This document shows, piece by piece, positions 11,930-57,643 of a stretch of 64,000 bases of DNA. This DNA is from a virus. Within the stretch, counting starts at the first letter, position 1; the number at the start of each line of letters is the position of its first letter. The notes beneath the pieces are model-generated. The model had not been told where the DNA came from and did no database searches. It worked only from the letters and a program-made list of their open reading frames with translations. Where the stretch lies: the IMG/VR virus record IMGVR_UViG_3300046387_001332; one strand, written 5' to 3'. The position numbers were made by a program, and so were the translations under genes.

Positions 11930-11951
11930 CAAAACAAAACGGAGAAAACAA

Positions 11952-12560: not shown

Positions 12561-12568
12561 TATATCTA

Positions 12569-12597
12569 TTGACATATATGTATATATTTTGTAGAAT
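12569..12597 (+). promoter_or_regulatory. Sigma70-type promoter upstream of portal (TATTTAT motif at 12602-12608)
   Basis: TTGACA-17nt-TAGAAT. Confidence 0.65.
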
Positions 12598-12618
12598 CAA
12601 CTATTTATAAGAATTGTT

Positions 12619-14463: not shown

Positions 14464-14525
14464 TTAGTTAAAATCTAATTTATATTTATATTTATATTCA
14501 AATATATATTTTAAAGAACATTAAT

Positions 14526-41863: not shown

Positions 41864-44827
41864 ATGGCAATAGGTGACGATTTAATCAATAAAGCAAAAG
41901 GATTATTTCCAGAAAAAAATACAGGTAAAAAAAATATAGATAGTTTTCTAGGAGGTAATTCAAACTCGGGAGGTGGTCTTGGTGGTAAACTTGCTGGTAT
42001 GTTTGGAAACTCGTCGGACGGAGGTGCTGGTGGTGGTAATCCGTTATCGGGTGGTTTAGGAGGTTTGTTGGGAGGTGGATTTCCTCCTGGTGGAGATGGA
42101 GGTTCTGGTGGAAATGAAATAGCAGATGCATTGAAGGATACTACATCAGCAACTGGAAAAGAAAAACCATTATTTGAGTCAAAAGAAGCTGCTAAAAACG
42201 ATTTAAAAACTAAGGACGCAAAACCTCCACCAAAAGGTTCTTTCATGGACGAGACATCTAGTATTGGTGAATCAAGTGCTTTTGGTACAACCCACGTTCG
42301 TCCCTGGGTCAGAAATGAGTTTACACGACGTGAAAAAAACTTTGGAATGTATTATACAACAGGAGGAGAATTTGCAAATGATACCTCCATACAAATGAGC
42401 AATGATGCTACCTTTGATGATGAGTATAGTGAAACTATTTATAGAGGTCCAAAAGCACCTTGGATGCGTGTCATATCCAATGCGATTGGGGAAAATCCAG
42501 AAACAAGTTTACCAATCTATGGATTTGAAATGCATGGTTTTAATAGAAAAGATGAAGATGGGAATTACAAAAATGGATTCCATGAGCAATATGGATTTGA
42601 TCCAACCACCGGTCAGGGGGGTGGTAAAACATATTTGGGAAGAGGTTGGAGTGGAGAAGGAAGTGATAAATTTACACCACCATCCGTTGATCATACAATA
42701 GAAGAAGAAGATTTTAAACATCGTCCGTCTCCTGGAATTACATCGATTAAATCAGAAGATAAGGAACCTGGACGAAATTTTAGAGAAACTACGGTTACAT
42801 TTGTGGTTCATAGTCGTGATCAATTAGATTACATGGATGATTATTTTTTTAAACTAGGTATATCATGTATAGTTGAGTGGGGTTGGAATACTTATCCGAG
42901 AGAATGTTTAATTGATTCTACAAATTTAGGTAAACCTATTAAAATTGCCAAAGGTGATTATATAAAAGGAAACCCACAGAGATTAAACAAAGTAAATAAT
43001 TTAAGAGCAGATGAAGGAAAAGACCCATTATCTGATGAAGATATAGACGAGAGTGCAAAATACAGATTCGGTCCTGGAGAAGGTATGGTAGGGTATTTTA
43101 CCGATCCGGTTCTTTCTAACAATCATTTAAAAAAAGGAAAAGGAAATTATTCGTTTGCCATTGGAATTATAAATAATTATAGTTACAATTTAAGAGAGGA
43201 CGGTGGATATGATTGTGAAATCAAAATATCAACAACATCAAAAATTTCAGCATCTCTTGATAATCAAGCAACAAAAGAAAAAACAGGTGATGATGACAAC
43301 CCAGACACAAGAGTTAAAGATTTTAAATTATTTGTGGAAACAAAACTGGATGAAATTTTGGGAGGGGATGAAGACCCCCACGAATGGTATGATATGGGTG
43401 AAGATTCTATTGCAGAAATAAGTGGAGAAGTGGGTGCGATGAGTGTATCTAAAGGAAGATTTTTTCAATTTGATCAAAGTGCATCGGGTAAAGAAACATA
43501 TCATTCAGATAAAGAAGATGCATATATAACAATAGGTTATTTAGTAGATATAGTAAATAAATTTTTTACCAAAAAAACCGAGGAGACTAATATAGGTTTG
43601 TTTGAGTTTAAAGTTGATAATTCACGTTGTGTTGCACATCCAAATATTAAATCTACCGATGGTAAAGTATTATTGATACCCAATGCAATGTCTCCAAGAA
43701 GAAATCAAAAAATAAGTGAAAGAAACAGTGGAACTACTGATCAAGTAGTAACTCAAATACGAAAAGATTTACAACTTGGAAATTCTGACAATGCCTCTGC
43801 TGTATTAGCAGTTATAAATTCCGAACTTGGAAGAAAATTAACAAATATAAATACTGCCTTGAAACAATCACCACGTGATAATTTATATGAAATTTTATCA
43901 GGATATGTTCCAGCTGAATACCCGGATGCAGTAAAGCCTTTTCCTGATTTTGCAACTTTATCTGGTGGAGTTAAAACCGAGGGATATAGTGGTAGATTGC
44001 AAGATCTATATGTGAACTATAATGTGGTAAAAGATGCAGTATTAAATGGATCAAATATTACAGAAATGCTAAAAGATATTCTAAAGAAAGTTTCAGAAGC
44101 AGCCGGAGGTATTTGGGATTTTGATTTAGTTGGACCAAATACATCGGTTTCAAATGATACCAATGTACAAATAGTTGATAGAAGATATCCTGGATTAGTA
44201 ACTGCGTATGATGTACAACGAGAAGATCAAGCATATAGATTTAAATCTCATACAAAAAATAGTATAGTAAAAAGTTTATCACTTGATGTATCGTGTTCAA
44301 GTGAAGTGCAAGGTATGGTTTTGTTTGGTGAAAAGGACGCAAAAGATAATTCACAGGCCGCATTTTATGCAAGAGGACGTGAAGATAGGTTGCTTAAAGA
44401 TGCAAAGCCGGTTGTATTAAAAGGTGAACCGTCAAGTCCGACGGGTGAAGCAGAAGATGAAGAAGACGAAATAGAATCTGAAGAAAAGTTTATAGTTGCG
44501 GCTGATAATGATTGGAGTGCATTTGATTATGATATTGAAATGGTCGATCCAAATAAAAATCGTGTATTAAAAAGTATGAAACTTGATGATCATAAGTTAA
44601 ATTGCGTAAAAAACAATATGCCATTGGATGGATGTGAACTCACAATGGAACTTGATGGAATTGAAGGTCTTCGTCTGTTAGATGTGTTTGCGTGTACAGG
44701 TGTACCAACACACTATTTTATTAATGGTCATTGGAGAATACAATCTGTTGCACATGATATATCTGATAATAATTGGATAACAACAATTGGTTCGGAATAT
44801 ATACCTAGTGTAAACGGTAGTGAATAA
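41864..44827 (+). CDS. Probable baseplate hub protein
   Basis: RPSPGITSI, VEWGWN and LDGIEGLRLLDVF..WRIQSVAHDISDNNWITTI; follows the LysM gene. Confidence 0.6.
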   Translation: MAIGDDLINKAKGLFPEKNTGKKNIDSFLGGNSNSGGGLGGKLAGMFGNSSDGGAGGGNPLSGGLGGLLGGGFPPGGDGGSGGNEIADALKDTTSATGKEKPLFESKEAAKNDLKTKDAKPPPKGSFMDETSSIGESSAFGTTHVRPWVRNEFTRREKNFGMYYTTGGEFANDTSIQMSNDATFDDEYSETIYRGPKAPWMRVISNAIGENPETSLPIYGFEMHGFNRKDEDGNYKNGFHEQYGFDPTTGQGGGKTYLGRGWSGEGSDKFTPPSVDHTIEEEDFKHRPSPGITSIKSEDKEPGRNFRETTVTFVVHSRDQLDYMDDYFFKLGISCIVEWGWNTYPRECLIDSTNLGKPIKIAKGDYIKGNPQRLNKVNNLRADEGKDPLSDEDIDESAKYRFGPGEGMVGYFTDPVLSNNHLKKGKGNYSFAIGIINNYSYNLREDGGYDCEIKISTTSKISASLDNQATKEKTGDDDNPDTRVKDFKLFVETKLDEILGGDEDPHEWYDMGEDSIAEISGEVGAMSVSKGRFFQFDQSASGKETYHSDKEDAYITIGYLVDIVNKFFTKKTEETNIGLFEFKVDNSRCVAHPNIKSTDGKVLLIPNAMSPRRNQKISERNSGTTDQVVTQIRKDLQLGNSDNASAVLAVINSELGRKLTNINTALKQSPRDNLYEILSGYVPAEYPDAVKPFPDFATLSGGVKTEGYSGRLQDLYVNYNVVKDAVLNGSNITEMLKDILKKVSEAAGGIWDFDLVGPNTSVSNDTNVQIVDRRYPGLVTAYDVQREDQAYRFKSHTKNSIVKSLSLDVSCSSEVQGMVLFGEKDAKDNSQAAFYARGREDRLLKDAKPVVLKGEPSSPTGEAEDEEDEIESEEKFIVAADNDWSAFDYDIEMVDPNKNRVLKSMKLDDHKLNCVKNNMPLDGCELTMELDGIEGLRLLDVFACTGVPTHYFINGHWRIQSVAHDISDNNWITTIGSEYIPSVNGSE

Positions 44828-45246
44828 TGGACACGGACGAATATCTTAATAAAAAAATATATACTGATCTCTTATCAAGAAAAGGTTCATTGAAGGCAGC
44901 CACTTTTAGTGAGTTTCCTGAGCAGATCAAAATAAAACCAGAAGTAGATGACTACAAGAATAAATACTTTACTCGTTACTTCGTAATAAAAGCAAGTGAT
45001 AAAAATGGGGTAATTTTTGAAGTAGATGTAGCAAAGTATAATGAACTTAAAAAAAATCCCTTTTATAGATGCGAACTTTTGCGTTGGAAAATCTCAGGTG
45101 TGTATAGAAGTGAGTATGATAATGGCATTATGATAGAAGAGGGTGTAGTAGATTTTAATGAAAAGGCATTTAATCGTCTTCGCAAAAAAATGCCAGATGT
45201 ACAAAATAAAATAAAAAGTCTTACAGAATTTTATAAAGCAAATTGA
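44827..45246 (+). CDS. Hypothetical protein
   Basis: TAATG-coupled; DYKNKYFTRYFV...LRWKISG. Confidence 0.7.
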   Translation: MDTDEYLNKKIYTDLLSRKGSLKAATFSEFPEQIKIKPEVDDYKNKYFTRYFVIKASDKNGVIFEVDVAKYNELKKNPFYRCELLRWKISGVYRSEYDNGIMIEEGVVDFNEKAFNRLRKKMPDVQNKIKSLTEFYKAN

Positions 45247-45271
45247 CAAATTGAAAATATTATTATATTAT
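45243..45271 (+). promoter_or_regulatory. Sigma70-type promoter
   Basis: TTGACA-17nt-TATTAT. Confidence 0.72.
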
Positions 45272-45281
45272 ATTTTTCAAG

Positions 45282-46583
45282 ATGTTTTTGTGTATTGAAA
45301 CAAAAGAGGATGTAAAGTTATTGAGTAATACTTTAAAAAGTGGGACTGCACTTTTTTATTATTTGTTTGAACCAAACTATCATCCTGTTACTAAGAAGGT
45401 TTGTGTTGTGTTCATTTACCATTTAGAGACTGATTCTCTTTTTTTGATTTCGTTTAGTCATCCCGATGTAGTTTTAATGGATAAAAACATATTAAACTAT
45501 ATCAATAATAGTAATTGTAAAAAATACATACTAAATAAAAAAGATTCAATGTATGTCAGTGATGTCAGTTCGTATACTGATTTATTATTTGAAATGTATT
45601 GTAAGACAGGTAATTTATTTGAATACAAATTACCACTTAATAATTCTGATATTCGTTCAATACCAATAATGTTAATTAAAAAAAGTTTCAACGATACCTT
45701 GAAACTTTTAAAACCTCATTTAAACACATACGAAAATTGCAACTTTTCGAGTGATTTATGTAAAGCATTTTATGAAATTGAAAAGAATGGAATTTATATA
45801 AATCATGAAGTATATAATTTAGGATCAACTGATTTAATTCACGATAACGGATGTGTGTATAGTCAATATAACTATTATACTCCAACTACTCGTCCAAGTA
45901 ATAGATTTGGAAAAATAAACTTTGCGGCTTTGAATTCAAAGAAAAATGAAAAAGATTCCATTGAGAGTAGATTTGGTGAAGATGGTATTTTGTTTATGGT
46001 TGATTATGAAAGTTATCACTTGAGATTGTTTGCTAACCATATAAACTTTTCATTACCTGAATCTTCTTTGCATGAATATTTTGGAAAGTTTTATTACGAT
46101 AAAGAAGAGTTAACTGAAGAAGAATACGAGATGTCCAAAAAAATTACATTTAACTTAATTTACGGTGGAATCTCTGATGATGTAAAAGAACACATCCCCT
46201 TTATGGCCGAGGTTGTAAAATATGTAGAATCGTGTTGGGCATCATTTAATAAAAACGAATACATTGAAACTTGGTTATACAATCGTAAATTATACAAAAA
46301 AAACTATGATTCAATGAATTCATATAAACTTTTTAATTACTTACTACAAAGTGCAGAAACTGAAAGAAATACAAAATTAGCATTATATCTTAATGGCGAA
46401 TTTTCAAAATTAAAAAGCAAAGTAATTTTATATCATTATGATGCATTTATAGTTGATTTACATAAGTCTGAAATTTCACATACCAAAAAAATTATTGAAA
46501 AACTTACAGATAATAACAAATTTCCACTGAGAGTATATGTCGGTAAAAATTATGGAGATATGTCTAAGTTAAGTGTTTGCTAA
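45282..46583 (+). CDS. Divergent short family-A DNA polymerase
   Basis: TTRPSN, motif A DYESYHLRL, motif B KKITFNLIYGG, NYLLQS and motif C HYDA. Confidence 0.8.
   Translation: MFLCIETKEDVKLLSNTLKSGTALFYYLFEPNYHPVTKKVCVVFIYHLETDSLFLISFSHPDVVLMDKNILNYINNSNCKKYILNKKDSMYVSDVSSYTDLLFEMYCKTGNLFEYKLPLNNSDIRSIPIMLIKKSFNDTLKLLKPHLNTYENCNFSSDLCKAFYEIEKNGIYINHEVYNLGSTDLIHDNGCVYSQYNYYTPTTRPSNRFGKINFAALNSKKNEKDSIESRFGEDGILFMVDYESYHLRLFANHINFSLPESSLHEYFGKFYYDKEELTEEEYEMSKKITFNLIYGGISDDVKEHIPFMAEVVKYVESCWASFNKNEYIETWLYNRKLYKKNYDSMNSYKLFNYLLQSAETERNTKLALYLNGEFSKLKSKVILYHYDAFIVDLHKSEISHTKKIIEKLTDNNKFPLRVYVGKNYGDMSKLSVC
45681..45709. repeat. 11-7-11 palindromic site, copy 2 (perfect arms)
   Basis: AAAAGTTTCAA-CGATACC-TTGAAACTTTT inside the polymerase CDS. 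Confidence 0.9.
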
Positions 46584-46621
46584 AATTAATGTATATTTAT
46601 CTGTAAAAGGTTATATACAAT

Positions 46622-47020
46622 ATGAATACACAACTGCTATGCACATTTACGGACATTCTCAATTATGAAAGAGAAATTAAAAGTATCTGTCATTTTTACA
46701 CGGTTGTTTTTGGAAAAATATATTGTTTGCAAAATTTAGATAATTTAGACCAGATATATTTGACATATAATGTAAATTCCAATAATATAAGGGAAGATGG
46801 ATTTTACAAAAACACAATTAGTGTTCACAGAAAAAAAGATTCTAACTCAATCTATACAATAAATTCTATGAATACATTAATTAAACACTTAAACAATGGA
46901 GTCCTTGATAAATCATATGCAATCAACTGGAACGATTATTCTAACTCAATTATGTTGACTGACGGTAATTCCGATGTTAAGTTAATTTCAACAAAGTTAT
47001 TTAAAATACTTAACATCTAA
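46622..47020 (+). CDS. Hypothetical protein
   Basis: MNTQLLCTF..SVHRKKDSNSIYTINSMN; TATTTAT at 46594-46600. Confidence 0.75.
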   Translation: MNTQLLCTFTDILNYEREIKSICHFYTVVFGKIYCLQNLDNLDQIYLTYNVNSNNIREDGFYKNTISVHRKKDSNSIYTINSMNTLIKHLNNGVLDKSYAINWNDYSNSIMLTDGNSDVKLISTKLFKILNI

Positions 47021-47028
47021 TTTAATAT

Positions 47029-47057
47029 TTGACTCACTAACAAAAAAAATATAAGGT
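47029..47057 (+). promoter_or_regulatory. Possible sigma70-type promoter of the prkA operon
   Basis: TTGACT-17nt-TAAGGT; a second ATG (47065) lies 7 nt downstream. Confidence 0.45.
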
Positions 47058-47058
47058 A

Positions 47059-49155
47059 ATGGTTATGGAAAATAAAAAACGACAAAAAGAAAAAACAAAT
47101 TCACTTGAATCTTTAATCAGATCAGAAAATGACGATTCGGTAAAAACATACAAGTCTCTTAATTGGACAGGATCATTTTGGGATTATTTGCAGATGATTG
47201 AAGAAAGTCCACGTGTTGCAAGAAATTCATATCAAAGACTTTATGATATGGTAATGTCACATGGAACAGAAGAATTTAAATATTGCAAAAGGCAATATGT
47301 TAAATATAAGTTTTTTCAAGGTCTTGGTGACATCTCTATTTATGGTCTTGAAGAAAACTTGATGGAATTTATGGACATTTTAAAAAGTGCAAGTAGACAC
47401 TATGGTCCAGAACGAAGAGTGATATTACTACACGGACCAGTTGGTAGTAGTAAATCAACAATTGTAACTGCACTCAAAAAAGGACTTGAAGAGTATACAA
47501 CAACAGAAGATGGTGCGTTGTATTCTTTTAGTTGGAAAATCGCAGATAAAAATGGTGAAGAGCAATTAGTTCCATGTCCAATGAACGAAGAACCATTAAA
47601 ATTACTTCCTACTAAAGTCCGTAATGAAGTAATTAGTAATTTAAATAAAAATATTTCCAGTGATGATTATAAGTTAAAACTTGATGGAGCATTGAATCCT
47701 GTAAACGAGTATTACTATAATCAACTAATGGAAATGCACGGGGGTGATTACCGCAGGGTTCTAGACCATGTCGTTGTTAGAAGAGTCGTTTTATCAGAAA
47801 AGAACCGTGTGGGAATCGGAACATTTCAACCCAAGGATGAAAAATCACAAGATGCAACCGAGTTAACCGGTGATATTAATTATCGTAAGTTAGCAGAGTA
47901 TGGTAGTGAAAGTGATCCCCGTGCATTTGATTTTGACGGAGAATTTTTAGTCTCTAATCGTGGTCTTATTGAGTTCCAAGAAATTCTTAAACTTCAAACA
48001 GAATTCTTGTATGATCTACTTGGAGCAACTCAAGAGCATCGTGTAAAACCACGTCGTTTTAACCAAGTACCAATTGATGAGGTTATTCTTGGGCATACTA
48101 ATAATGCTGAGTTTGAAAAATTAACCAATAATAAATTCATGGAAGCACTGCGTGATAGAACTATCAAAATCGATATTCCTTATCTTCTTAAAATTTCTGA
48201 AGAAAAGAAAATTTATGATCACTTCTATAATACAAGTACCGTAAACAAACACATTGCACCTCACACAACATACTTGGCTGCATTGTTCGCAGTAGTAAGT
48301 CGTTTAGAAGAAAGTTCAAAGCAAGACATGAGCATTATTCAAAAAGCAAAACTTTACAATGGTCAGAGTGTACATGGATTCACAGATGAACACGTAAAAG
48401 AAATGCAAGAAGAATCTCCAAAAGAAGGATTGTATGGTGGAGTATCTGCTCGTTTCATTCAAAATCAGTTTTCCAATGCAATCGTTAATCCAAGAATGGG
48501 TGCTAAAAGTTTAAATCCATTTATGTTGTTTGCACAAATTCGTGAAGGACTTAAAAGTTATAGTGGGTTCTTAAACGAAGATGATAAAAAGTCTATGTTT
48601 GAACGTCTTGAACTTGTAGAAAAGGAATATGATAGAATTGTGAAACGAGAAGTACAACAAGCACTTAGTAGTAGTGAAGAAGCAATAAAAGCACTTTGCA
48701 CCAACTACATTGATAACATCGTTGCATATATTCAAGATGAAAAAGTTACAAATCCTGTAACTGGAAAAGAAGAAACTGCAAACGAAACTTTGATGCGTAG
48801 TATTGAAGAAAAAATTGGTATTTCTACTGGAATGAAAGATGATTTTCGTAGAGAAATTATGAACTATATGGGTGGACTTGCCGCCAAGGGTAAAGAGTTT
48901 AAGTATGACTCAAACGAGCAACTTTACAAAGCACTTGAAAAGAAGTTGTTCGAAGATACTAAAGATAGTATCAAGTTGTCTGCTCTTGCACAAGATACTG
49001 CAACTGTAGTTGATAAGGAACTTCTTGAAAAGATAGACGCATTGAAGCAACGTCTTATTGTTTCGTTTGGATACGATGAAGATAGTGCGTCAGATGTTCT
49101 TACTTATGTTGGAAGTATATTCGCACGTGGTGACGCAGACGATGACGAAGAGTAA
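47059..49155 (+). CDS. prkA: PrkA/YeaG family AAA+ ATPase / Ser kinase
   Basis: LLHGPVGSSKST, CPMNEEPL, GIGTFQPKDEKSQD, SDPRAFDFDGE, NRGLIEF, HTNNAEF, EALRDR and GVSARF. Confidence 0.95.
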   Translation: MVMENKKRQKEKTNSLESLIRSENDDSVKTYKSLNWTGSFWDYLQMIEESPRVARNSYQRLYDMVMSHGTEEFKYCKRQYVKYKFFQGLGDISIYGLEENLMEFMDILKSASRHYGPERRVILLHGPVGSSKSTIVTALKKGLEEYTTTEDGALYSFSWKIADKNGEEQLVPCPMNEEPLKLLPTKVRNEVISNLNKNISSDDYKLKLDGALNPVNEYYYNQLMEMHGGDYRRVLDHVVVRRVVLSEKNRVGIGTFQPKDEKSQDATELTGDINYRKLAEYGSESDPRAFDFDGEFLVSNRGLIEFQEILKLQTEFLYDLLGATQEHRVKPRRFNQVPIDEVILGHTNNAEFEKLTNNKFMEALRDRTIKIDIPYLLKISEEKKIYDHFYNTSTVNKHIAPHTTYLAALFAVVSRLEESSKQDMSIIQKAKLYNGQSVHGFTDEHVKEMQEESPKEGLYGGVSARFIQNQFSNAIVNPRMGAKSLNPFMLFAQIREGLKSYSGFLNEDDKKSMFERLELVEKEYDRIVKREVQQALSSSEEAIKALCTNYIDNIVAYIQDEKVTNPVTGKEETANETLMRSIEEKIGISTGMKDDFRREIMNYMGGLAAKGKEFKYDSNEQLYKALEKKLFEDTKDSIKLSALAQDTATVVDKELLEKIDALKQRLIVSFGYDEDSASDVLTYVGSIFARGDADDDEE

Positions 49156-49172
49156 TCTCAACGGACTTAGTT

Positions 49173-50330
49173 ATGCCATCACGCAGAATAAGAGAAGATC
49201 ACGGTGAGTATAGGGATATCGTCAAGGGAAATGTTGATGATAAACTTAAAAAACACATTAAGAGTGGTCAAAGAATATCACGACGTGGGAAAGATTTCGT
49301 TGTGGTGCGAGTTCCTCATGTAGAACTTCCAAGTTTTCGTTACGGACAACCTGCCGATGGAAGTGGAATCGGCAACGGAGAAGCCGGTGTTGGTGACGAA
49401 GTCGGTGAAGGACCCCAACAACAAGGTAGTGGTCAAGGTGGTCAACCTGGTGAAGGGGGTGAGGGTGAAGGAGATGGTCACGAAATTGATGTCGGAATTA
49501 GCATGGATGCTTATTTTGATATGATAGGAGAAGAACTTCAATTACCAAATCTAAAACCAAAGGATAATGGAGAAATGGTAAAAGAAAAAATCAAATGGAA
49601 TCGTATTGCAAAAGTTGGAAACAATAGTTTGCTTCACAAACGCAAAACTCTGAAAAATGCGTTTAAACGTTTGATTTCTTCCGAAGACTACAATCCTGAA
49701 GATTTATCTAATTTTTATCCTATTAAAGACGACAAAGAATTCAGAAGTTGGAGTTCAGTTGAAGTACCTGATACTAATGCGGCCATATTTTTCGTGTCCG
49801 ACATTTCTGCGAGTATGGACGACGAAAAACGAGGTTTGGTTCGTGAGTTGTGTTGGTACTTAGACAATTGGGTTCGTAGATTTTATCAAGAAACTCAAGT
49901 TAAGTATATTGTTCATGATCACCACGCACAAGAAGTAGATCAAGAAAAGTTCTATAAATATAAAAGTGGTGGTGGTACTCAAATAAGTAGTGCGTTTCAT
50001 TTAGTCAATGATGTAGTAGAAAAAGCATTTCCATTAAACGAGTGGAACATTTATGTATTTTATCTAAGTGACGGAGAAAACTTTGGTTCTGATAATGATT
50101 TATGTGTTGAGTATTTGAAAAAAATGCAAACATATGCAAATTTAATAGGAATTACAGAGGTTAAAGCAATCAGAAGTTGGGCAACATTTATACCAGCAAT
50201 TCAAGCACAATTATCAACTGGTGATCTTGATCCAAAAACAATTGTTACTGCATCAATGGATTCAGCATCCGATGTATTTAAAACACTTCAAAAATTATTA
50301 ACACCTGCTGAAGAGGAGGTACCGTTCTAA
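49173..50330 (+). CDS. yeaH: YeaH/YhbH (DUF444) VWA-domain protein
   Basis: Gly-rich linker, ELQLPNLKPK, MIDAS DISASM, SGGGTQISSA and WNIYVFYLSDGEN. Confidence 0.92.
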   Translation: MPSRRIREDHGEYRDIVKGNVDDKLKKHIKSGQRISRRGKDFVVVRVPHVELPSFRYGQPADGSGIGNGEAGVGDEVGEGPQQQGSGQGGQPGEGGEGEGDGHEIDVGISMDAYFDMIGEELQLPNLKPKDNGEMVKEKIKWNRIAKVGNNSLLHKRKTLKNAFKRLISSEDYNPEDLSNFYPIKDDKEFRSWSSVEVPDTNAAIFFVSDISASMDDEKRGLVRELCWYLDNWVRRFYQETQVKYIVHDHHAQEVDQEKFYKYKSGGGTQISSAFHLVNDVVEKAFPLNEWNIYVFYLSDGENFGSDNDLCVEYLKKMQTYANLIGITEVKAIRSWATFIPAIQAQLSTGDLDPKTIVTASMDSASDVFKTLQKLLTPAEEEVPF

Positions 50331-51895
50331 TGGGAATTGCATGGGAAAGTCATAGTTTAAATGAAGGAGTTTGTCCAGAGTTGGCTGCTCTTATACCTGA
50401 GTGTTTACAGGCTTGTTACGATAATGGACTCGATCCATACCCTTTGTGTATTGAAGAATTTGATGCAGATGAAATAGTTGAGATTGCGGCGTATGGTGGA
50501 TTTCCAGTTCGTTATCCTCATTTTAATTTCGGGCAACAATTTGAACAACTTCATTATCAGTATCATCATGGTATGGGTAAGATTTATGAAATGGTTGTAA
50601 ATACTGATCCAACATATATGTACCTACAACGAAACAATCCTATCGTTGATAATCTAACTGTTGTTGCACACGCAACTGCACATAGTGATTTCTTTAAGAA
50701 CAATATTATGTTCAAGCATACTAATCGTAACATGATGAATGTTATGGCAAATCATAGTGATAAGATTCGTATGTACATGGATAGATTTGGTCGTAAAAAA
50801 GTAAAAGACTTTTTGAATGCGGCTCTTGCTATTGATGATTTAATTGATCCATCACTTTGTTATCGTGAAAGTAATTTAAAGAAAGCAACTAAATTCAACT
50901 TTGAAGATCGTCAACCACGTGAACACGTAACTCGTCTTGATACAAAAGAATATATGGACAAGTATGTGAATCCTTCTCATTATATTGAAAAGCAAAGAAG
51001 GGAACGTGAAGAACGACAAAAGTTAGCAGAAAATAAATTTCCATTGCAACCTGAACGTGATATTATGTTAATGATCATAAATCATTGTCGGTTAGAACCT
51101 TGGCAACAAAACATACTAAGTATGATCCGTGACGAAGCAATTTATTATCGTCCACAGGGAATGACAAAGGTTCTTAACGAAGGTTGGGCAAGTTATTGGG
51201 ATTCTTATATTATGGCAACTTGTAATTTTGCAGGAGACGATGGGATATTTGATTATGCAAAACACCATGCAGGAGTTTTAGGTGGAAAATACAATATGAA
51301 CAATCCATATAAACTCGGAAATACATTGTTGCGTGATATTGAAGACCGTTGGAACAAAGGAAGATTCGGTAAAGAATATGAAATGTGTGACAATGGTGAT
51401 GAAAAAAGATATTGGAATAAGAACTTAAATCTTGGTCGTGAAAAACTTTATGAAGTTCGTGAGAACTATAATGATGTTACATTTCTCAATGAGTTTTTTA
51501 CAAAAGATTTTTGCGAAAAACATGAATACTTTGAATATGCATTAGATAAATCAAAAAACAAGTATGTTGTTGTTAGCAAAGATTACAAAAAGATAAAAGA
51601 AAAACTTATCAATCGTCATATCAATATGGGAAGACCTGTAATTTATATGGAAAATATGAAATATAAGAACACAGAGATTTTATTAAGACACGACTTCGAA
51701 GGCAGACCCTTAGATATTAAGTATGCAACTGGTACAATGGCCTATTTACATGAAATAATGAAGAGACCCATAAATCTGTTAACATACGATGTTGAAGAAG
51801 AAGGATATGGTTCTTCAAAAGAAATTGTTGAAGTTGAAGTCCGTTATCGATACAATAACGGAGAAATGAAAAGATTTGAAGGCAGTAAGATTTAA
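50330..51895 (+). CDS. spoVR: SpoVR/YcgB family protein
   Basis: GFPVRYPHFNFG, KIYEMVVN, VVAHATAHSDFFKNN, TKVLNEGWASYW and NPYKLG. Confidence 0.94.
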   Translation: MGIAWESHSLNEGVCPELAALIPECLQACYDNGLDPYPLCIEEFDADEIVEIAAYGGFPVRYPHFNFGQQFEQLHYQYHHGMGKIYEMVVNTDPTYMYLQRNNPIVDNLTVVAHATAHSDFFKNNIMFKHTNRNMMNVMANHSDKIRMYMDRFGRKKVKDFLNAALAIDDLIDPSLCYRESNLKKATKFNFEDRQPREHVTRLDTKEYMDKYVNPSHYIEKQRREREERQKLAENKFPLQPERDIMLMIINHCRLEPWQQNILSMIRDEAIYYRPQGMTKVLNEGWASYWDSYIMATCNFAGDDGIFDYAKHHAGVLGGKYNMNNPYKLGNTLLRDIEDRWNKGRFGKEYEMCDNGDEKRYWNKNLNLGREKLYEVRENYNDVTFLNEFFTKDFCEKHEYFEYALDKSKNKYVVVSKDYKKIKEKLINRHINMGRPVIYMENMKYKNTEILLRHDFEGRPLDIKYATGTMAYLHEIMKRPINLLTYDVEEEGYGSSKEIVEVEVRYRYNNGEMKRFEGSKI

Positions 51896-51899
51896 GTAA

Positions 51900-52658
51900 G
51901 TGAAACCTTCGGGTAACCAAATTTATCATTGTGATAATTTATCACTTCTAAAAAAATTAGATTCAGAGTCAATCAATTTAATATATTGCGATATATTATA
52001 CGGAACTGGAAAAAAATTTAAGGATTATGACGATCTACAACCAGTTCGTTCCGAAATAGATTCTCATTATATTCCTCGTTTGTACGAAATGAAACGAGTA
52101 CTCTCAAAAACTGGAACAATCTATCTACAAATGGATTTGCGAATTGTGCATTGGATACGGATATTGATGGACAATATATTTGGTTATGAAAATTTTAGAA
52201 ATCAAATTGTAATAAAATTCAATATAGGTGGTCGTGGTAAACGTGAGTTTGCAAAAAAACATGACTATATAATTGTCTATACAAAAACAGATGATTTCGT
52301 ATTTAATGATAAAGATATCCGTGTGCCATATAAATCAGTAGTAAGTAAAAAGCAAGATAGACCTAACATTACACCAGAAAAACTTGCCCTTGGTACAATC
52401 CCAACTAATATATGGGATGACATTCCATCTGGACTTAAAGTAAAAAAGCAAACAGATTATTATTCAGAAAAACATCCAAAGATACTTGAACGAATTATTA
52501 AAGCAAGTAGTAATGAAGGTGATTTGGTTGCTGATTTCTACTGCGGAAGTGGTACAACATTAGATGTTGCTAAGAGTCTAAATCGGTGTTACTTAGGATG
52601 TGACATTAACCCAAATGCAGTCAAAATTTCCAAACAAAGATTGAGCAAAAAAAGTTAA
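51900..52658 (+). CDS. DNA methyltransferase (N6-A/N4-C, beta class) with atypical catalytic motif
   Basis: LIYCDILYGTG at the DPPY position; FRNQI, KHP..LERII and motif I ADFYCGSGTT. Confidence 0.85.
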   Translation: MKPSGNQIYHCDNLSLLKKLDSESINLIYCDILYGTGKKFKDYDDLQPVRSEIDSHYIPRLYEMKRVLSKTGTIYLQMDLRIVHWIRILMDNIFGYENFRNQIVIKFNIGGRGKREFAKKHDYIIVYTKTDDFVFNDKDIRVPYKSVVSKKQDRPNITPEKLALGTIPTNIWDDIPSGLKVKKQTDYYSEKHPKILERIIKASSNEGDLVADFYCGSGTTLDVAKSLNRCYLGCDINPNAVKISKQRLSKKS

Positions 52659-52742
52659 TTTTTTTACCTTGAAATGTGCTTAAAATTCAAGTAAAATATA
52701 TTTATATATAGTAAATAAAACTGATTAAATAATAATTGAAAA

Positions 52743-52973
52743 ATGGATAATGAAAATGAAAAATACGATGCCTACGGCATTCGATTGCAAGTATTAAAAA
52801 GTGCAAAAGAGATGGTATGGGAAGCATGGCACATGGAAAAAGAAGAGTTGGAAAGTCGTGCCACTTTTGAAAATACTCCCCTGGAAATACCACCAATTCC
52901 AACCACACGTGAAGTATTAGAAATTGCTTCTGACTTTTACAATTTCGTTGAAAATGGCGGAAAATCTTCTTAA
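52743..52973 (+). CDS. Small hypothetical phage protein
   Basis: YGIRLQVLKSAKE..PTTREVLEIASDFYNFV; TATTTAT at 52699-52705. Confidence 0.72.
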   Translation: MDNENEKYDAYGIRLQVLKSAKEMVWEAWHMEKEELESRATFENTPLEIPPIPTTREVLEIASDFYNFVENGGKSS

Positions 52974-52988
52974 TTAATATCATTCTGA

Positions 52989-53017
52989 TTGACGAAATTC
53001 AAATTGAGTTGTATTAT
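52989..53017 (+). promoter_or_regulatory. Sigma70-type promoter
   Basis: TTGACG-17nt-TATTAT upstream of the SSB gene. Confidence 0.7.
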
Positions 53018-53059
53018 ATTAAGAATAATAATAACAAATACTAAATTAAGGAATAAAAA

Positions 53060-53896
53060 ATGGCAATTGACCTAGATAAAATCAAAGCAAAATTAAATAA
53101 TTTGTCACAGACAAATAATCGTAAGAATTATCAATGGAAACCTCAACCTGGTAAGCAACAGGTTCGCATCGTACCTTACAAGCATCAACCGGATAATCCT
53201 TTTATCGAGTTGTTTTTCCACTACGGAATCAACAATCGGACTTATCTTTCTCCCAAGTCTTTTGGTCGTCCTGATCCAATTGTGGAGTTTGCAGAAAAGT
53301 TGACTCGCAGTGGAGATAAAGATGATTATCGTATGGGGCGTTCTTTGATGCCAAAGATGAGAACTTTTGTTCCTGTTATCGTTCGTGGTGAAGAAGCAGA
53401 AGGAGTTCGGTTTTGGGGTTTTGGTAAAGAAGTTTATCAAGAACTTCTCGGTGTAATCGCAGACCCCGATTATGGAGACATTACCGATGCAACTAATGGA
53501 AGAGACATTACAATAGAATTTCTTTCAGCAGAAGAAGCCGGAAGATCATTTCCAAAAACAAACATCCGTGTTAAACCCAACACATCCCCAATATCCGAAA
53601 ACAAAAATATTGTTGACGGAGTTGCTAATAATCAAGCAGAAATCACAGAGATTTATCAAGAACTTAGTTACGATGAATTGAAAGATGCTCTTGAAAAATG
53701 GGTTAGTGGTGAATCAGAAGAAGATGCACCTCCACCTGAATCGGTAGATGACCAATCTTCCAATTCCAATAAGCAAGTTGTTGTTGAAGAAACACAAACA
53801 GAAGTCAAGGCAAGTCCGACTTCTGAAAAGAGTAAACCAAATGCAACATCTACTGAAGATGTAGAGGCTGCGTTTGAAGAGTTATTCAAGCAGTAA
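53060..53896 (+). CDS. Single-stranded DNA-binding protein (gp32-like)
   Basis: WKPQPGKQQVRIVP, PFIELFFHY, WGFGKEVY, DITDATNGRDI and an acidic tail ending AFEELF. Confidence 0.85.
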   Translation: MAIDLDKIKAKLNNLSQTNNRKNYQWKPQPGKQQVRIVPYKHQPDNPFIELFFHYGINNRTYLSPKSFGRPDPIVEFAEKLTRSGDKDDYRMGRSLMPKMRTFVPVIVRGEEAEGVRFWGFGKEVYQELLGVIADPDYGDITDATNGRDITIEFLSAEEAGRSFPKTNIRVKPNTSPISENKNIVDGVANNQAEITEIYQELSYDELKDALEKWVSGESEEDAPPPESVDDQSSNSNKQVVVEETQTEVKASPTSEKSKPNATSTEDVEAAFEELFKQ

Positions 53897-53900
53897 TAAT

Positions 53901-53932
53901 AAAGGGTGAGGGGCAAAATCCCTCACCCTTTT
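53901..53932 (+). terminator. Rho-independent terminator after SSB
   Basis: AAAGGGTGAGGG...CCCTCACCCTTTT. Confidence 0.82.
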
Positions 53933-53947
53933 AAACATTTAATTTTT

Positions 53948-55102
53948 ATGGCAAGAAAAAAAGAAGAAAAAACAAAATCAGAAGATTTAGCATCTGTACT
54001 TGCAGAAAGTCTAAACTCTGCGTATAAGGATGAAGGTAAAGTAGCATTCTTTTTAAATGAAGGAGATGATCCTTCTTTAATTTCCGATTGGATTCCAACA
54101 GGTAGTAGTTTACTTGATTTGGCAATTTCAAATCGTCCGAATGGTGGAATTCCAACAGGAAGAATCACAGAACTAACTGGACTTGAACAAAGTGGAAAAA
54201 GTTTAGTATCTGGACACATTCTTGCGGAAACTCAAAAGAAAGGGGGTGTTGCGGTATTAATAGATACCGAGACAAGTGTGTCCGTTGAGTATCTAAAAGC
54301 AATTGGTGTTGATACCGAAAAGTTATTGTATGTCCATGTTGACACGGTAGAAGACATTTTTGCAACGATTGACAACATCATCGCAACTATTCGTAAAAGC
54401 AACAAAGATAAACTTGTAACGATTGTAACAGATAGTGTATCAGCTGCGTCAACTAAAATTGAAATGGCGGCAGATTACGCAAAAGATGGATATGCAACGA
54501 CCAAGGCAATTTTAATTAGTAAGGCAATGCGTAAGTTAACTTCAACAATTGGAAGGCAAAAAATTGCATTGGTATTCACTAACCAACTCCGTCAAAAGAT
54601 GGGAGTTATGTTTGGTGATCCGTGGACAACGAGTGGTGGTAAAGCAATTGCGTTTCACGCAAGTGTTCGTATTCGTTTGAAAAGTATGGGTCAAATTAAA
54701 AAAGGTGCAACCACAGAAGTCATCGGTGGAAAGTGTGAAGCAACTATTGTAAAAAATAGAATGGGTCCTCCACAACGAAAAGCATCGTTTGAAATTTATT
54801 TTAATCGTGGTGTTGATGATGTCGGAAGTTGGATAACAACATTGAAAACATACAAAGTTTTAAAACAAGGTGGTGCGTATTATTCATTTACAGATTCCAA
54901 CGGAAAAGACTATAAGTTTATGGCAAAAGAATTTCCAGAAATGCTAAAGGATGAAAATCTCAAAAAAGAGTTATATCAACATATATGCGATAACATCATA
55001 ATGGAATATGAATCAGCAAACAGTGTAGTAGATGAAGATGTTGAATTCACGGATAATGCAGAAATCGAAGACGCAGAATTAGCATCTGTTTCAAATGAGT
55101 GA
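53948..55102 (+). CDS. recA: RecA/UvsX recombinase
   Basis: IPTGSSLLDLA, GRITELTGLEQSGKS, FTNQLR, TTSGGKAIAFHASVR and VKNRMGPP; ATG at 53948. Confidence 0.93.
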   Translation: MARKKEEKTKSEDLASVLAESLNSAYKDEGKVAFFLNEGDDPSLISDWIPTGSSLLDLAISNRPNGGIPTGRITELTGLEQSGKSLVSGHILAETQKKGGVAVLIDTETSVSVEYLKAIGVDTEKLLYVHVDTVEDIFATIDNIIATIRKSNKDKLVTIVTDSVSAASTKIEMAADYAKDGYATTKAILISKAMRKLTSTIGRQKIALVFTNQLRQKMGVMFGDPWTTSGGKAIAFHASVRIRLKSMGQIKKGATTEVIGGKCEATIVKNRMGPPQRKASFEIYFNRGVDDVGSWITTLKTYKVLKQGGAYYSFTDSNGKDYKFMAKEFPEMLKDENLKKELYQHICDNIIMEYESANSVVDEDVEFTDNAEIEDAELASVSNE

Positions 55103-56174
55103 TAAAAAAAAGATATTTAGTTTATTTCAAGAATTCTCTCAGGAACAAAAAGAAGAACTGGATGTAGACCGGAATATAAATTCTGATACCCTTTTAATTG
55201 ATGGTATGAATACATTTATGCGTGTTTGGAGTATGTATCCAACCACTAACGACAATGGTGATCACATAGGTGGTTACACTGGTTTCCTCAAAAGCATAGG
55301 ACACGCAATTCGTTTACGTAAACCCACACGATGTATTGTTATATTTGATGGAAAGGGTGGAAGTGCAAGAAGACGCAAAATTTTTTCCGACTATAAAATG
55401 AAAAAGAATGTTCGGTTTCGGGTAAATCGTGCATTGAGTTTAGACTTGGATCAAACCGAAGAATCAAGTTCAATGAAGTTTCAGATAGTTAAATTGATAC
55501 AATACTTGAATATGCTTCCTGTTACTACTATATGCATGGATAATGTAGAAGCAGATGACGTTATAGCATTACTTGCTCGTTCTTATTTTAGTGGACTTGG
55601 CAAACAGTGTACTATAATGAGTACCGATAAGGATTTCCTCCAACTTGTAGACGAAGACGTAACGGTTTATAGTCCTACTAAAAGAACGGTTTACACTCCC
55701 GAAAAAGTATCACTTGAATACGGAATACATCCTAATAACTTTTTATTGTACAGAACAATAGATGGAGACCGGGGTGATAATATAGAGGGAATGAAAGGTG
55801 TCGGTGAGAAAAAACTAAAAACTGCATTTCCTGAATTATCAACAGAAGCAAAATTATCAGTTGATGATTTACTAAAAATTTCCGAAGAAAAGAAAAAAGA
55901 AATGCCATTGTATAAAAATTTTCTTAAAGAAGAAAATCAAAGTTTGTTGAAACGAAATTATGATTTGATGCAATTGGTAGATTCTATTCTTCCTGCGAGT
56001 ATGCAGACAAAAATATTCGACCATGTCGATTCACCGGTAACAGAATTAAACAAGTTTGAATTTAGTAAAAAATTTGCCGAAGATCAATTGTGGGCCGCAT
56101 TTCCAAATCACCACACTTGGTTAATGGAAACGTGGACAATTCTGAATAACTATGCGATTTCTTCACAATCGTAA
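55095..56174 (+). CDS. 5'-3' exonuclease / RNase H (FEN family)
   Basis: LLIDGMN, IFDGKG, VEADDVI, STDKDFLQL and GDRGDNIEGMKGVG. Confidence 0.92.
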   Translation: MSDKKKIFSLFQEFSQEQKEELDVDRNINSDTLLIDGMNTFMRVWSMYPTTNDNGDHIGGYTGFLKSIGHAIRLRKPTRCIVIFDGKGGSARRRKIFSDYKMKKNVRFRVNRALSLDLDQTEESSSMKFQIVKLIQYLNMLPVTTICMDNVEADDVIALLARSYFSGLGKQCTIMSTDKDFLQLVDEDVTVYSPTKRTVYTPEKVSLEYGIHPNNFLLYRTIDGDRGDNIEGMKGVGEKKLKTAFPELSTEAKLSVDDLLKISEEKKKEMPLYKNFLKEENQSLLKRNYDLMQLVDSILPASMQTKIFDHVDSPVTELNKFEFSKKFAEDQLWAAFPNHHTWLMETWTILNNYAISSQS

Positions 56175-56230
56175 TTTTTTTAAAAAAAGTCTTGATTGGA
56201 TTCCAATCATTTGATAATCTATTTTAATAT

Positions 56231-57643
56231 ATGACGGAGACAAATAATAATGTAGATACTCTACAAAAGTTCGGTACTGCATTTCAAAGTAAAACCATTC
56301 GTGCTTTAATTGACGATAAAAAGTTCTTGGAAAGAACTCACGATATCATTGAAACTGAATATTGGGAAAGTGAAGCACATAAATGGATTGTAGATGAAAT
56401 TTTAACGCACTACGATAAGTATAAAAGAACAACTACACTTGATGTATTTAAAATTAAGTGTGATGATGTAAACATTGATTCATTAAAGGCCGCAATCGTT
56501 GACCAACTTAGAAGTATATTTACACAAGTTGACACAAATGATGCGGAGTTTGTTAAAAATGAGTTTTTGAACTTTTGTAAAAATCAAAAACTTAAAAATG
56601 CAATTATGCAAAGTGTTGACTTTCTTAAAGGTGGTCAATACGACTCCATTAAACGAATTGTAGATGATGCACTAAAAGCAGGAACAGAACGTGATATTGG
56701 TCACGATTATGCACGTGACATTGATTTAAGAATGTCTGAAACTGCCCGTGATACAATTAATACTGGTTGGGAAGTAATTGATGATTTAACGAATGGTGGA
56801 TTAGGACCCGGAGAACTTGGTGTTATTATCAGTAGTGCGGGGGGTGGTAAAAGTTGGTGTTTAGCATCACTTGGTAAATCAGCAATGCAAAGTGGTAAAA
56901 ATGTATTGCATTATACTTTAGAACTTAATGAGTGTTATGTTGGACTTCGTTATGATAGTTGTTTCACAGGTATCCCTTTCCAAGATATTATGGAACATGA
57001 AGATAAAGTTAAAAGTTTAGTTTCAACTATCAAGGGAAAACTTCTTATTAAAGAATATCCAACAAAAAGTGTGGGAGTTAGTACAATTCTTGCACACGCA
57101 AATTTAGCAAATACAATGGGGTATCCTGTTGATATGGTGGTAATTGATTATGCAGATATTTTATCTCCGGGTAAAGTGTCTAATAATGCAAATACCTATG
57201 TAGAACAAGGTGGTATTTACGAGGACTTACGAGGCCTTGCGGGCGAACTCGGAGTACCTGTATGGACTGCATCTCAAGCAAGTCGTTCGTCATTAGATGA
57301 TAATATTATTGAAGCACAAAAAGTTGCCGATAGTTATCGTAAAATAATGACGGCAGACTTTGTTATGAGTTTGTCGAGAAAAGCAACTGACAAGGTTAGT
57401 AATACAGGAAGATTTCATGTTATCAAAAATCGTTTTGGAGCAGATGGCATGACTTTTCCAAGTAGAGTAGACACATCTTCGGGTGTTATTGAAATATATG
57501 ATGAGCAAAGTACAAAGGGTGCGGAAATAATGGTGGAAATGAATGATTCTGATAATGGAGCAAAGAATCTTTTAAAATCTAAGTACGACCAAATGAACAA
57601 TAAAAATTCATATAATAACGAAGATAGTGTTGATATTGGTTAA
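56231..57643 (+). CDS. Replicative helicase (DnaB/gp41-like)
   Basis: GGLGPGEL, SAGGGKSW, YTLEL, VIDYAD, WTASQ and KNRFG. Confidence 0.92.
   Translation: MTETNNNVDTLQKFGTAFQSKTIRALIDDKKFLERTHDIIETEYWESEAHKWIVDEILTHYDKYKRTTTLDVFKIKCDDVNIDSLKAAIVDQLRSIFTQVDTNDAEFVKNEFLNFCKNQKLKNAIMQSVDFLKGGQYDSIKRIVDDALKAGTERDIGHDYARDIDLRMSETARDTINTGWEVIDDLTNGGLGPGELGVIISSAGGGKSWCLASLGKSAMQSGKNVLHYTLELNECYVGLRYDSCFTGIPFQDIMEHEDKVKSLVSTIKGKLLIKEYPTKSVGVSTILAHANLANTMGYPVDMVVIDYADILSPGKVSNNANTYVEQGGIYEDLRGLAGELGVPVWTASQASRSSLDDNIIEAQKVADSYRKIMTADFVMSLSRKATDKVSNTGRFHVIKNRFGADGMTFPSRVDTSSGVIEIYDEQSTKGAEIMVEMNDSDNGAKNLLKSKYDQMNNKNSYNNEDSVDIG

Follow-up and report, generated by a model that had tools for sequence, protein, structure and literature searches.

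A PrkA-YeaH-SpoVR module inserted in one sublineage of large uncultured T4-capsid-type myoviruses, and its possible role in host protein turnover

Introduction

PrkA-YeaH-SpoVR is among the most widespread bacterial operons without settled biochemistry, and its occurrence as a complete set in a phage genome raises the question of what such a module is, how it came to be there and what a virus might gain from it. The locus considered here lies at 47059-51895 of a 64,000-nucleotide stretch of viral DNA (IMG/VR record IMGVR_UViG_3300046387_001332; the whole stretch is hereafter called the window), where a first-pass annotation had noticed the genes prkA (yeaG), yeaH (yhbH) and spoVR (ycgB) side by side and had proposed a candidate for an undescribed system that would rewire host dormancy or starvation physiology, or remodel host or defence proteins. 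The present analysis confirmed that this locus is an intact, full-length PrkA-YeaH-SpoVR module in a true myovirus genome, and traced its insertion, its evolutionary history, the predicted assembly of its products and the functions that they might serve.

Two cellular studies frame the question of function. Price et al. (10.1101/072470) found yeaG, yeaH and ycgB to be mutual best cofitness partners in six bacteria and proposed one conserved pathway, connected with the use of nitrogen and amino acids. Manzanarez et al. (PNAS, October 2026) found that yeaG of Escherichia coli is needed for the starvation-induced, largely nonspecific degradation of cytoplasmic protein, which supplies amino acids and ATP (PMC13684143); YeaG is thus now tied to a global, autophagy-like protein degradation in starving E. 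coli.

An intact three-gene module

The three genes are plus-strand open reading frames (ORFs) with Pfam matches to the three families (Table 1), and being co-directional and adjacent they constitute a module. A gap of 17 nt separates prkA from yeaH, and the yeaH stop and spoVR start overlap in the sequence TAATG (a gap of -1 nt). The GC content of the trio (0.30-0.37) is in line with that of the remainder of the window. The signature motifs are all present in the translations, namely the Walker A motif GPVGSSKST at PrkA residues 126-134, the metal-ion-dependent adhesion site (MIDAS) of YeaH (D210-I-S-A-S214, T269 and D300-G301) and the H114-A-T-A-H118 and N283-E-G-W-A motifs of SpoVR, and their residues do not vary among homologues from phages and cells, with YeaH and YcgB of E. 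coli among those compared. In these respects, that is, contiguity and full length, intact motifs, coupling of yeaH to spoVR through TAATG and an AT-rich composition like that of the rest of the genome, the first-pass description is borne out.

The PrkA protein belongs to the "long PrkA" type. In an alignment of 11 phage and cellular sequences, G126-P127-V128-G129, K132, S133, E305, E308, N348 and R367 are invariant, and R365 is nearly so (at least 90% of rows). We take E305/E308 to be the acidic Walker B residues, N348 the sensor asparagine and R365/R367 the arginine fingers, judging by their position and by what is generally known of AAA+ proteins. No Hanks-type kinase domain was detected, as PrkA had no Pkinase-type Pfam match at E<=0.001; its Pfam matches are to PrkA-specific families only, with no assignment to the MoxR family. 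Residues 25-690 align with a solved chain, 9xip_A (E 1.1e-211), from a group of three PDB entries (9xip, 9xiq and 9xir; 30 chains of 692 aa) titled "Serine protein kinase". A literature search found no paper behind these entries, which should reveal the oligomeric state of the PrkA subfamily present in the window. In a 2026 study, Bacillus anthracis PrkA was described as a clade III, FtsH/YME1-like AAA+ protein that had no detectable protease or kinase activity after stringent purification, and the weak ATP-dependent protease activity that Zhang et al. (2022) reported for B. subtilis PrkA may be due to a contaminant (PMC13001217).

Insertion of the cassette and its spread among phages

Scanning IMG/VR with PrkA yielded 169 viral contigs. 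The window's own lineage comprises about 35 loci (PrkA 80-99% identity), and the gene order is kept throughout it: a small conserved gene, prkA, yeaH, spoVR, a DNA methyltransferase gene, gp32 (encoding the single-stranded DNA-binding protein, SSB), uvsX, the exonuclease gene and dnaB. Overall, the order prkA-yeaH-spoVR holds in all of the approximately 75 viral loci that extend far enough. A second IMG/VR scan was anchored on gp32, with relatives counted if gp32 was at least 80% identical and at least 6.1 kb of upstream sequence was available. In all such relatives (28/28), prkA, yeaH, spoVR and the methyltransferase gene lie between the small gene and gp32, and on shorter contigs the cassette is visible as far as the sequence extends. 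Where gp32 identity drops to 43-65%, the small gene's homologue in most cases stands directly before gp32, and in none of these relatives does the trio lie between the two; on contig L225, for instance, they start at 9545 and 10001, respectively, and no trio intervenes. The methyltransferase gene follows spoVR in all close relatives and is missing from the slot in the trio-less ones. Because this presence/absence pattern is clean, the block of about 6 kb consisting of the trio and the methyltransferase gene is an insertion, fixed in one sublineage of large uncultured T4-capsid-type myoviruses.

The closest relatives of the trio outside the lineage (PrkA 74-77%, YeaH 44-52% and SpoVR 56-64% identity) are found in another type of phage with other flanks, one record of which is 222 kb long, is rated 100% complete and encodes a capsid protein only 30% identical to that of the window. 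Since the closest trios sit in a different phage type, the trio appears to have moved between phage lineages. The methyltransferase gene does not accompany the trio in this second group and travels with it in the window lineage only. In a third, larger viral group, PrkA identity is about 50%; it includes a 572-kb record with terminal repeats, which also carries a T4-type capsid gene, and the 595-kb huge phage LR756511.

A sharp mosaic boundary was also observed at the promoter-like element of prkA, separating 41864-47020 from 47029-57643. Relatives that match the window at 84-100% identity in the trio, gp32, the exonuclease and DnaB reach only 30-72% in the four upstream genes (encoding proteins of 987 aa and 139 aa, a PolA-like protein and a protein of 132 aa), where nonsynonymous divergence (dN) is 0.3-0.8. 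This contrast in identity at the boundary suggests allelic replacement or recombination of the upstream block.

Selection and origin of the trio

The trio is under strong purifying selection. Nei-Gojobori estimates of the ratio of nonsynonymous to synonymous divergence (dN/dS) against 12 relatives were 0.02-0.085 for prkA, 0.00-0.084 for yeaH and 0.009-0.074 for spoVR, indistinguishable from those of gp32, the exonuclease and DnaB in the same comparison; ratios for distant pairs, with dS near 1, are rough, and those for the closest pairs (dS 0.06-0.36) lie at 0.00-0.04.

Even the nearest homologues in cells are remote, with identities of 52-57% for PrkA, 43-48% for SpoVR and 32-37% for YeaH, and come from Bdellovibrionota, Planctomycetota, Calditrichota and Myxococcota (for example Kofleriaceae and Haliangium), among other groups. 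In a FastTree phylogeny of 97 PrkA sequences, the window clade has a support of 100 and a long stem (0.51) and stands apart from all sampled cells; the same six-row clade also receives a support of 100 in the YeaH and SpoVR trees. A recent host origin of the trio was rejected, given the distance of the cellular homologues, the long-stemmed clade of its own and the low dN/dS. A Bacteroidota-derived gene was likewise considered and rejected, as only one Bacteroidota sequence occurs among the 80 nearest cellular PrkA sequences, and it is not the closest. As regards the number of cell-to-phage transfers behind the "long-type" viral trios, the trees disagree: all 29 viral rows fall in one clade of the YeaH tree (support 99), which would fit a single transfer, and the huge-phage group of the PrkA tree lies outside a grouping of cells and the window clade (support only 83), which may indicate several.

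A conserved promoter-like element before prkA

The cassette may be expressed from a promoter of its own. The motif TTGAC[TG]-N17-TA[AG]GGT occurs upstream of prkA in all 12 relatives inspected (12/12), in which the protein identity of the gene upstream of the element is only 52-72%. The window contains 5 copies of this motif against 1.5 expected, and the copy before prkA is the sole one that is intergenic and directly precedes a plus-strand gene. A generic scan for sigma70 promoters and terminators in this AT-rich window remained at chance level (51 promoters against 48.4 expected and 3 terminators against 3.0). Of the possible own promoter noted at first pass, the specific, conserved element therefore stands, and the generic scan adds nothing above chance. 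The element would be the cassette's own promoter, probably served by unmodified host RNA polymerase.

Two further sigma70-like sites, both near consensus, were noted in the vicinity, one directly before the PolA-like gene (45243-45271, TTGACA-17-TATTAT, 11/12 positions) and one before gp32 (52989-53017, TTGACG-17-TATTAT, 10/12 positions). Together with the prkA element, they suggest host-polymerase promoters of the TTGACA type. Such promoters would be unusual for a Bacteroidota host, yet the nearest cultured relative by capsid infects Flavobacterium.

YeaH, SpoVR and their predicted complex

YeaH consists of a conserved N-terminal docking segment, a Gly/acidic linker and a C-terminal VWA domain with a MIDAS. 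A Foldseek search of the PDB with its AlphaFold2 model returned 298 matches at E<=0.001 (top 8e-9, probability 1.00), the listed rows being predominantly VWA domains, with Rea1-MIDAS and BatB among them. P53, F55, G67, D210, S212, S214, T269 and D300 are invariant, E. coli YeaH included. By its model, the C-terminal domain is unambiguously a VWA domain with a complete MIDAS.

The AlphaFold2 model of SpoVR, with a predicted local distance difference test score (pLDDT) of 81.9, comprises a helical, zincin-like domain (about residues 1-400) and an alpha/beta C-terminal domain that is folded at 402-520. PF24755, the SpoVR C-terminal family annotated in cellular relatives and not in the phage clade, scores only 13.7-16.6 bits in the window's SpoVR against a cut-off of 27.6. 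Exhaustive structural alignment with VIA-align listed 20 chains with Z>=8, and zincin or gluzincin peptidases make up almost the whole set: DUF885 (Z 11.5), M1 aminopeptidases and leukotriene A4 hydrolase (Z 9-10), M32, M30, M3, M9, M4/thermolysin and collagenases, with YbeY at Z 6.6; 170-205 residues were aligned at a root-mean-square deviation of about 4-5 A, and Z values of 8-11.5 are within the chance range for helical models. The topology, with strands, a helix bearing H114-x3-H118 and a later helix bearing the invariant N283-E284-G-W-A, fits a zincin, and H64, E87, H114, H118 and E284 stay invariant even in YcgB of E. coli and in the proteins of the Thermus and Ralstonia phages. The catalytic glutamate of HExxH is absent, position 115 being A or V across the family; a Foldseek search of the PDB with the SpoVR model gave no match at E<=0.001, and a profile comparison of SpoVR with E. 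coli PepN in hhalign reached a probability of 0.5%. Low-threshold Pfam scans of SpoVR and YeaH pieces found no peptidase or other informative family. A possible resemblance of NEGWASY to an M1 aminopeptidase motif remains a lead and is not used as evidence. SpoVR is accordingly described here as zincin-like and is not classed as a peptidase, because the HExxH glutamate is missing, its Z values may lie at chance level and the PepN comparison was negative. The "metalloprotease-like" idea of the first-pass annotation gains some backing from the zincin-type fold neighbours (Z up to 11.5, within the chance range just given), although the catalytic glutamate is absent.

Co-folding of full-length YeaH and SpoVR, with one alignment for each and three controls, gave an interface score (interaction prediction score from aligned errors, ipSAE) of 0.80 (runs 0.82, 0.80 and 0.80), compared with 0.00 for the best control. 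On the calibration set, 58 of 80 solved complexes and 2 of 110 mismatched pairs scored this high, counts that apply here only approximately, given the use of own alignments. The runs agreed in at least 86% of contacts, with a partner pLDDT of at least 74. Since the PDB holds no relative of either protein by sequence, a score derived from a memorised complex is unlikely. On the YeaH side, the predicted interface comprises residues 2-16, 42-83 and 105-108, including the invariant P53, F55 and G67; on the SpoVR side, it comprises 48-80, 163-171, 321-324 and much of the C-terminal domain (398-472). SpoVR residues 56-70, disordered in the monomer model, are ordered in the complex. The model thus supports binding of SpoVR by the YeaH N-terminus, the part of the structure modelling proposed at first pass that concerns this pair. 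Because the VWA domain of YeaH is left free, the model also suggests that YeaH bridges SpoVR to PrkA or to client proteins, which is consistent with the translational coupling of yeaH and spoVR.

Possible functions of the phage module

The reading favoured here, tentatively and with a probability that falls a little short of even, is that the phage owns a functional trio that remodels or degrades host protein for phage growth. PrkA would form an ATP-driven AAA+ ring, and YeaH would serve as an adaptor whose conserved N-terminal segment clamps SpoVR, a zincin-like, metal-dependent subunit, while its free VWA/MIDAS domain would engage PrkA or client proteins. Expressed alongside the replication genes from its own promoter, the complex would unfold, remodel or degrade host cytoplasmic proteins, a copy of the YeaG-dependent starvation proteolysis of E. 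coli run on the phage's schedule, and amino acids and energy would be freed for phage synthesis in nutrient-poor hosts. Of this scheme we infer the ATPase activity, the PrkA-YeaH contact, the proteolysis, the timing of expression and the benefit to the phage.

Several points weigh against this proposal. The PNAS study demonstrates dependence on YeaG, identifies no protease and does not mention YeaH or YcgB (PMC13684143). The protease status of PrkA itself is disputed, weak activity in B. subtilis standing against none detectable in B. anthracis (PMC13001217). SpoVR lacks the HExxH glutamate, its fold matches have Z values attainable by chance, and both the Foldseek search and the PepN comparison were negative. 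That the hosts are nutrient-poor is an assumption.

A bolder version of the same idea goes further and is judged unlikely as a whole. It would make the trio a three-part, ATP-dependent protease in which PrkA is an FtsH-like unfoldase, YeaH a VWA/MIDAS adaptor that clamps SpoVR, and SpoVR an atypical zincin-like hydrolase (H114/H118/E284, with E87 as the base). The cellular module would then be the missing effector of starvation-induced bulk proteolysis, and the phage copy, with the glutamate dehydrogenases and ClpP-like gene of its lineage, would convert the host proteome to amino acids, carbon skeletons and energy.

Among the alternatives, a regulatory or signalling role survives best, as an unlikely but serious competitor. 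The trio would here remodel or modify a few regulators without bulk degradation, and might allow replication to go ahead by either maintaining or preventing a state of starvation or growth arrest in the host. YeaG/PrkA has historically been viewed as a signalling protein, its cofitness phenotypes vary by species and centre on nitrogen and amino-acid use (10.1101/072470), and B. anthracis PrkA affects the transcription of sporulation genes without detectable enzymatic activity (PMC13001217); such a role would also suit a cassette that is preceded by a sigma70-like element and surrounded by replication genes of early or middle type. However, neither the domain content of the window's PrkA, which is limited to PrkA-specific domains, nor the purified B. 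anthracis protein (PMC13001217) supports a kinase, and a phage acting in this way would need host-conserved targets, yet it carries the whole module rather than a single interfering subunit.

Pairs of AAA+ and VWA proteins such as RavA-ViaA, CbbQ-CbbO, NorQ-NorD and BchI-BchD act as assembly chaperones, and the trio might by analogy mature, or insert a metal into, one specific enzyme complex of the phage or the host on which replication depends, such as an enzyme of nucleotide metabolism. The complete MIDAS in the VWA fold of YeaH, with Rea1-MIDAS and BatB among its matches, accords with this analogy, as do the location of the cassette in the replication and nucleotide-metabolism region, with ribonucleotide reductase genes about 6 kb downstream, and the invariant histidine and glutamate residues of SpoVR, which suggest a metal site. 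Even so, this alternative is distinctly less probable than regulation, given that PrkA is not a MoxR-family protein by Pfam and is reported to lie nearest the clade III FtsH/YME1-type unfoldases (PMC13001217), that cassette-less relatives keep the same replication genes, so that no obligate client is apparent, and that the phenotypes of the cellular module are pleiotropic and starvation-related rather than confined to a single enzyme.

Counter-defence, in which the machine would remove or disable host defence or abortive-infection proteins or reverse defence-induced dormancy, is very improbable. Its appeal is conceptual, in that an unfoldase with an adaptor could target defence proteins, and the cassette is accessory in the wider phage group and has apparently moved between phage lineages; by contrast, its three proteins are highly conserved, with very low dN/dS, whereas anti-defence genes typically evolve fast; in cells the module is an ancient operon for housekeeping and stress, and no defence-related neighbours are present. 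Finally, an artefact or passenger, that is, a chimeric assembly containing host DNA or a host fragment captured recently and not under selection, has practically no probability left and is effectively refuted, for despite the cellular type of the trio genes and the "provirus" label of several related IMG/VR records, about 40 independent assemblies, made from different samples, have the same flanks, the composition matches the phage, the closest cellular identities reach only 57% (PrkA), 48% (SpoVR) and 37% (YeaH), dN/dS is 0.00-0.085 and the long-stemmed window clade lies apart from sampled cells, so that conserved neighbourhood, purifying selection, distant homologues and a separate clade together exclude both forms of it.

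Remodelling or degradation of host protein thus remains the preferred reading of the module. The first-pass suggestion of a whole AAA+/VWA/SpoVR machine carried by the phage holds, in that the module is intact, under selection and preceded by its own conserved promoter-like element, while the accompanying idea of sporulation or dormancy rewiring finds no support here. Sporulation control by the trio was likewise rejected as a candidate function, as the evidence from cells favours bulk proteolysis induced by starvation (PMC13684143) and a pathway in which the three genes act together across species.

Relation to known systems and significance

The closest cellular counterpart is the bacterial "long PrkA" operon of Myxococcota (for example Kofleriaceae and Haliangium), Bdellovibrionota, Planctomycetota and Calditrichota, in which the three families follow one another as they do here, with comparable lengths and every invariant motif. 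The phage copy differs in residing in a lytic-type phage, behind a phage-specific promoter-like element instead of a stress-regulated promoter, in forming its own long-stem clade and in a SpoVR C-terminal domain that scores weakly for PF24755. The trios of E. coli (yeaG-yeaH plus ycgB) and B. subtilis (prkA-yhbH plus spoVR) are homologous at 22-28% identity and share with the window the catalytic or metal residues and the P-x-F docking motif of YeaH. They represent a distant subfamily, with genes in two loci controlled by RpoS/NtrC or sigmaE, unlike the window trio, which is contiguous and has two translationally coupled genes.

Complete trios in large myoviruses also occur in the Thermus phages phiYS40, TMA and YS40_Isch, the Ralstonia jumbo phage RsoM2USA (ORF28-30) and huge phages (LR756511, 595 kb). 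In phiYS40 (YS40_056/057/059) and its relatives, the genes have the permuted order yeaH-spoVR-x-prkA. These deposited phage trios differ from that of the window in PrkA identity (only 26-49%) and in genomic slot; LR756511 has the capsid type in common with the window (major capsid protein 38.7%). Two other systems are comparable only in the way they would work. The FtsH/YME1-type AAA+ metalloproteases combine an AAA+ ring of the FtsH-like clade (PMC13001217) with a zincin-like subunit, as in the trio, although the trio consists of three polypeptides rather than one, its SpoVR lacks the HExxH glutamate and proteolysis by its complex is hypothetical. The MoxR-VWA chaperone pairs share the AAA+/VWA-MIDAS pairing, with the difference that PrkA is not of the MoxR family. 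In Enterobacter phage LAU1 (MN688132.1, 30.8 kb), a "YeaG" gene at the very start of the record (190-1821), 28.5% identical to the window's PrkA, was also noted; it may be host-derived sequence at the record end and not part of a phage trio.

The label of an undescribed system cannot be upheld, since this is a well-known cellular operon that is annotated in phiYS40, RsoM2USA and huge phages, its genes have PHROG families, and a study of an oxygen-minimum-zone virome described viral spoVR as the most abundant "sporulation" auxiliary metabolic gene and interpreted it as controlling sporulation (PMC8940887). A literature search found no functional study of any phage copy of the trio. What the analysis adds for the window is a map of the insertion, estimates of selection on its genes, a promoter-like element that is conserved among relatives, a model of the YeaH-SpoVR pair and an assignment of the SpoVR fold as zincin-like. 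Because several large phage lineages keep the complete trio, under selection as strong as that on replication genes, the activity of the module may be directly useful for virion production, which suggests that phages in nutrient-poor waters may themselves trigger host proteome turnover. The analysis also corrects the reading of viral spoVR as a "sporulation" gene. Moreover, the phage copies provide testable handles, including a predicted interface of invariant residues between the YeaH N-terminus and SpoVR, a candidate metal site in SpoVR and the natural presence/absence contrast between sister phage lineages.

Phage genome and gene neighbourhood

The identity of the window as part of a large myovirus genome rests on a co-directional stretch of T4-type structural and replication genes (Pfam and PHROG matches; Table 1), with the gp32-type SSB, a UvsX/RecA recombinase, a 5'-3' exonuclease, a DnaB helicase and both ribonucleotide reductase subunits further along. 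IMG/VR lists related records of 152-170 kb with estimated completeness of 75-84%. The cultured phages closest in capsid protein are Flavobacterium phage vB_FspM_immuto (54%), Microcystis phage Mel-JY01 (52%) and Rhodothermus phage RM378 (36%), none of which had a PrkA match in a search of deposited phages; a megablast search with window positions 40-60 kb found nothing similar among cultured and deposited phages.

Table 1. Coordinates of the module, its flanks and other features
Feature	Position	Strand	Evidence and remarks
prkA/yeaG, AAA+ ATPase, "long PrkA" type, 698 aa	47059..49155	+	Pfam AAA_PrkA (PF08298) 8.8e-86 and PrkA C-domain (PF06798) 3.5e-70, both near full length
yeaH/yhbH (DUF444, PF04285), 385 aa	49173..50330	+	Pfam 2e-65, two stretches: 5-178, 184-377
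spoVR/ycgB, 521 aa	50330..51895	+	Pfam SpoVR (PF04293) 1e-106, residues 18-432
TTGACT-N17-TAAGGT promoter-like element	47029..47057	+	Ends 2 nt before prkA ATG, within 38-nt spacer
Small conserved gene, 132 aa, no family	46622..47020	+	Left edge of insertion
N6/N4 DNA methyltransferase	51900..52658	+	Pfam N6_N4_Mtase 1.7e-43; starts 4 nt after spoVR
gp32-type SSB	53060..53896	+	Pfam gp32 8.2e-13, phrog_1192; right edge of insertion, anchor of presence/absence survey
PolA-like ORF, 433 aa	45282-46583		Sub-threshold DNA_pol_A match, E 2.6e-6, 27.1 bits vs cut-off 34.3
T4-type large terminase	10328-11929		
T4-type portal	12619-14463		
Major head protein	21333-22790		
Tail sheath	26405-29062		
Glutamate dehydrogenase pair and ClpP-like gene, within about 4 kb	10350-14702 of G006 (L034, 161 kb)		Related record
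Glutamate dehydrogenase pair and ClpP-like gene, within about 4 kb	148942-153293 of G007 (L037, 170 kb)		Related record

The trio had been placed between a polymerase and the SSB at first pass. The SSB is indeed gp32, and the upstream "polymerase" amounts to the weak, sub-threshold DNA_pol_A match of the PolA-like ORF. Upstream of the latter, the 987-aa and 139-aa ORFs have no Pfam or PHROG match, and the three ORFs together (41864-46583) may represent a very divergent or split polymerase.

In each of the two largest related records, two adjacent glutamate dehydrogenase genes lie 2-3 kb from a ClpP-like gene, and PhoH is encoded in four of five related records. This context is compatible with a protein-mobilising role of the module, without constituting proof of it. 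The related T4-like records L013, L034, L037 and L023 are classed as "provirus" in IMG/VR, although the gene set of the window is of the lytic type; the label may have been triggered by their many cellular-type genes.

The 400 nt between the methyltransferase gene and gp32 (52659-53059) form the right end of the inserted cassette. They contain only short overlapping ORFs on both strands (52702-52983 on the minus strand and 52743-52973 on the plus strand) and a weak terminator-like hairpin on the minus strand at 52780-52768.

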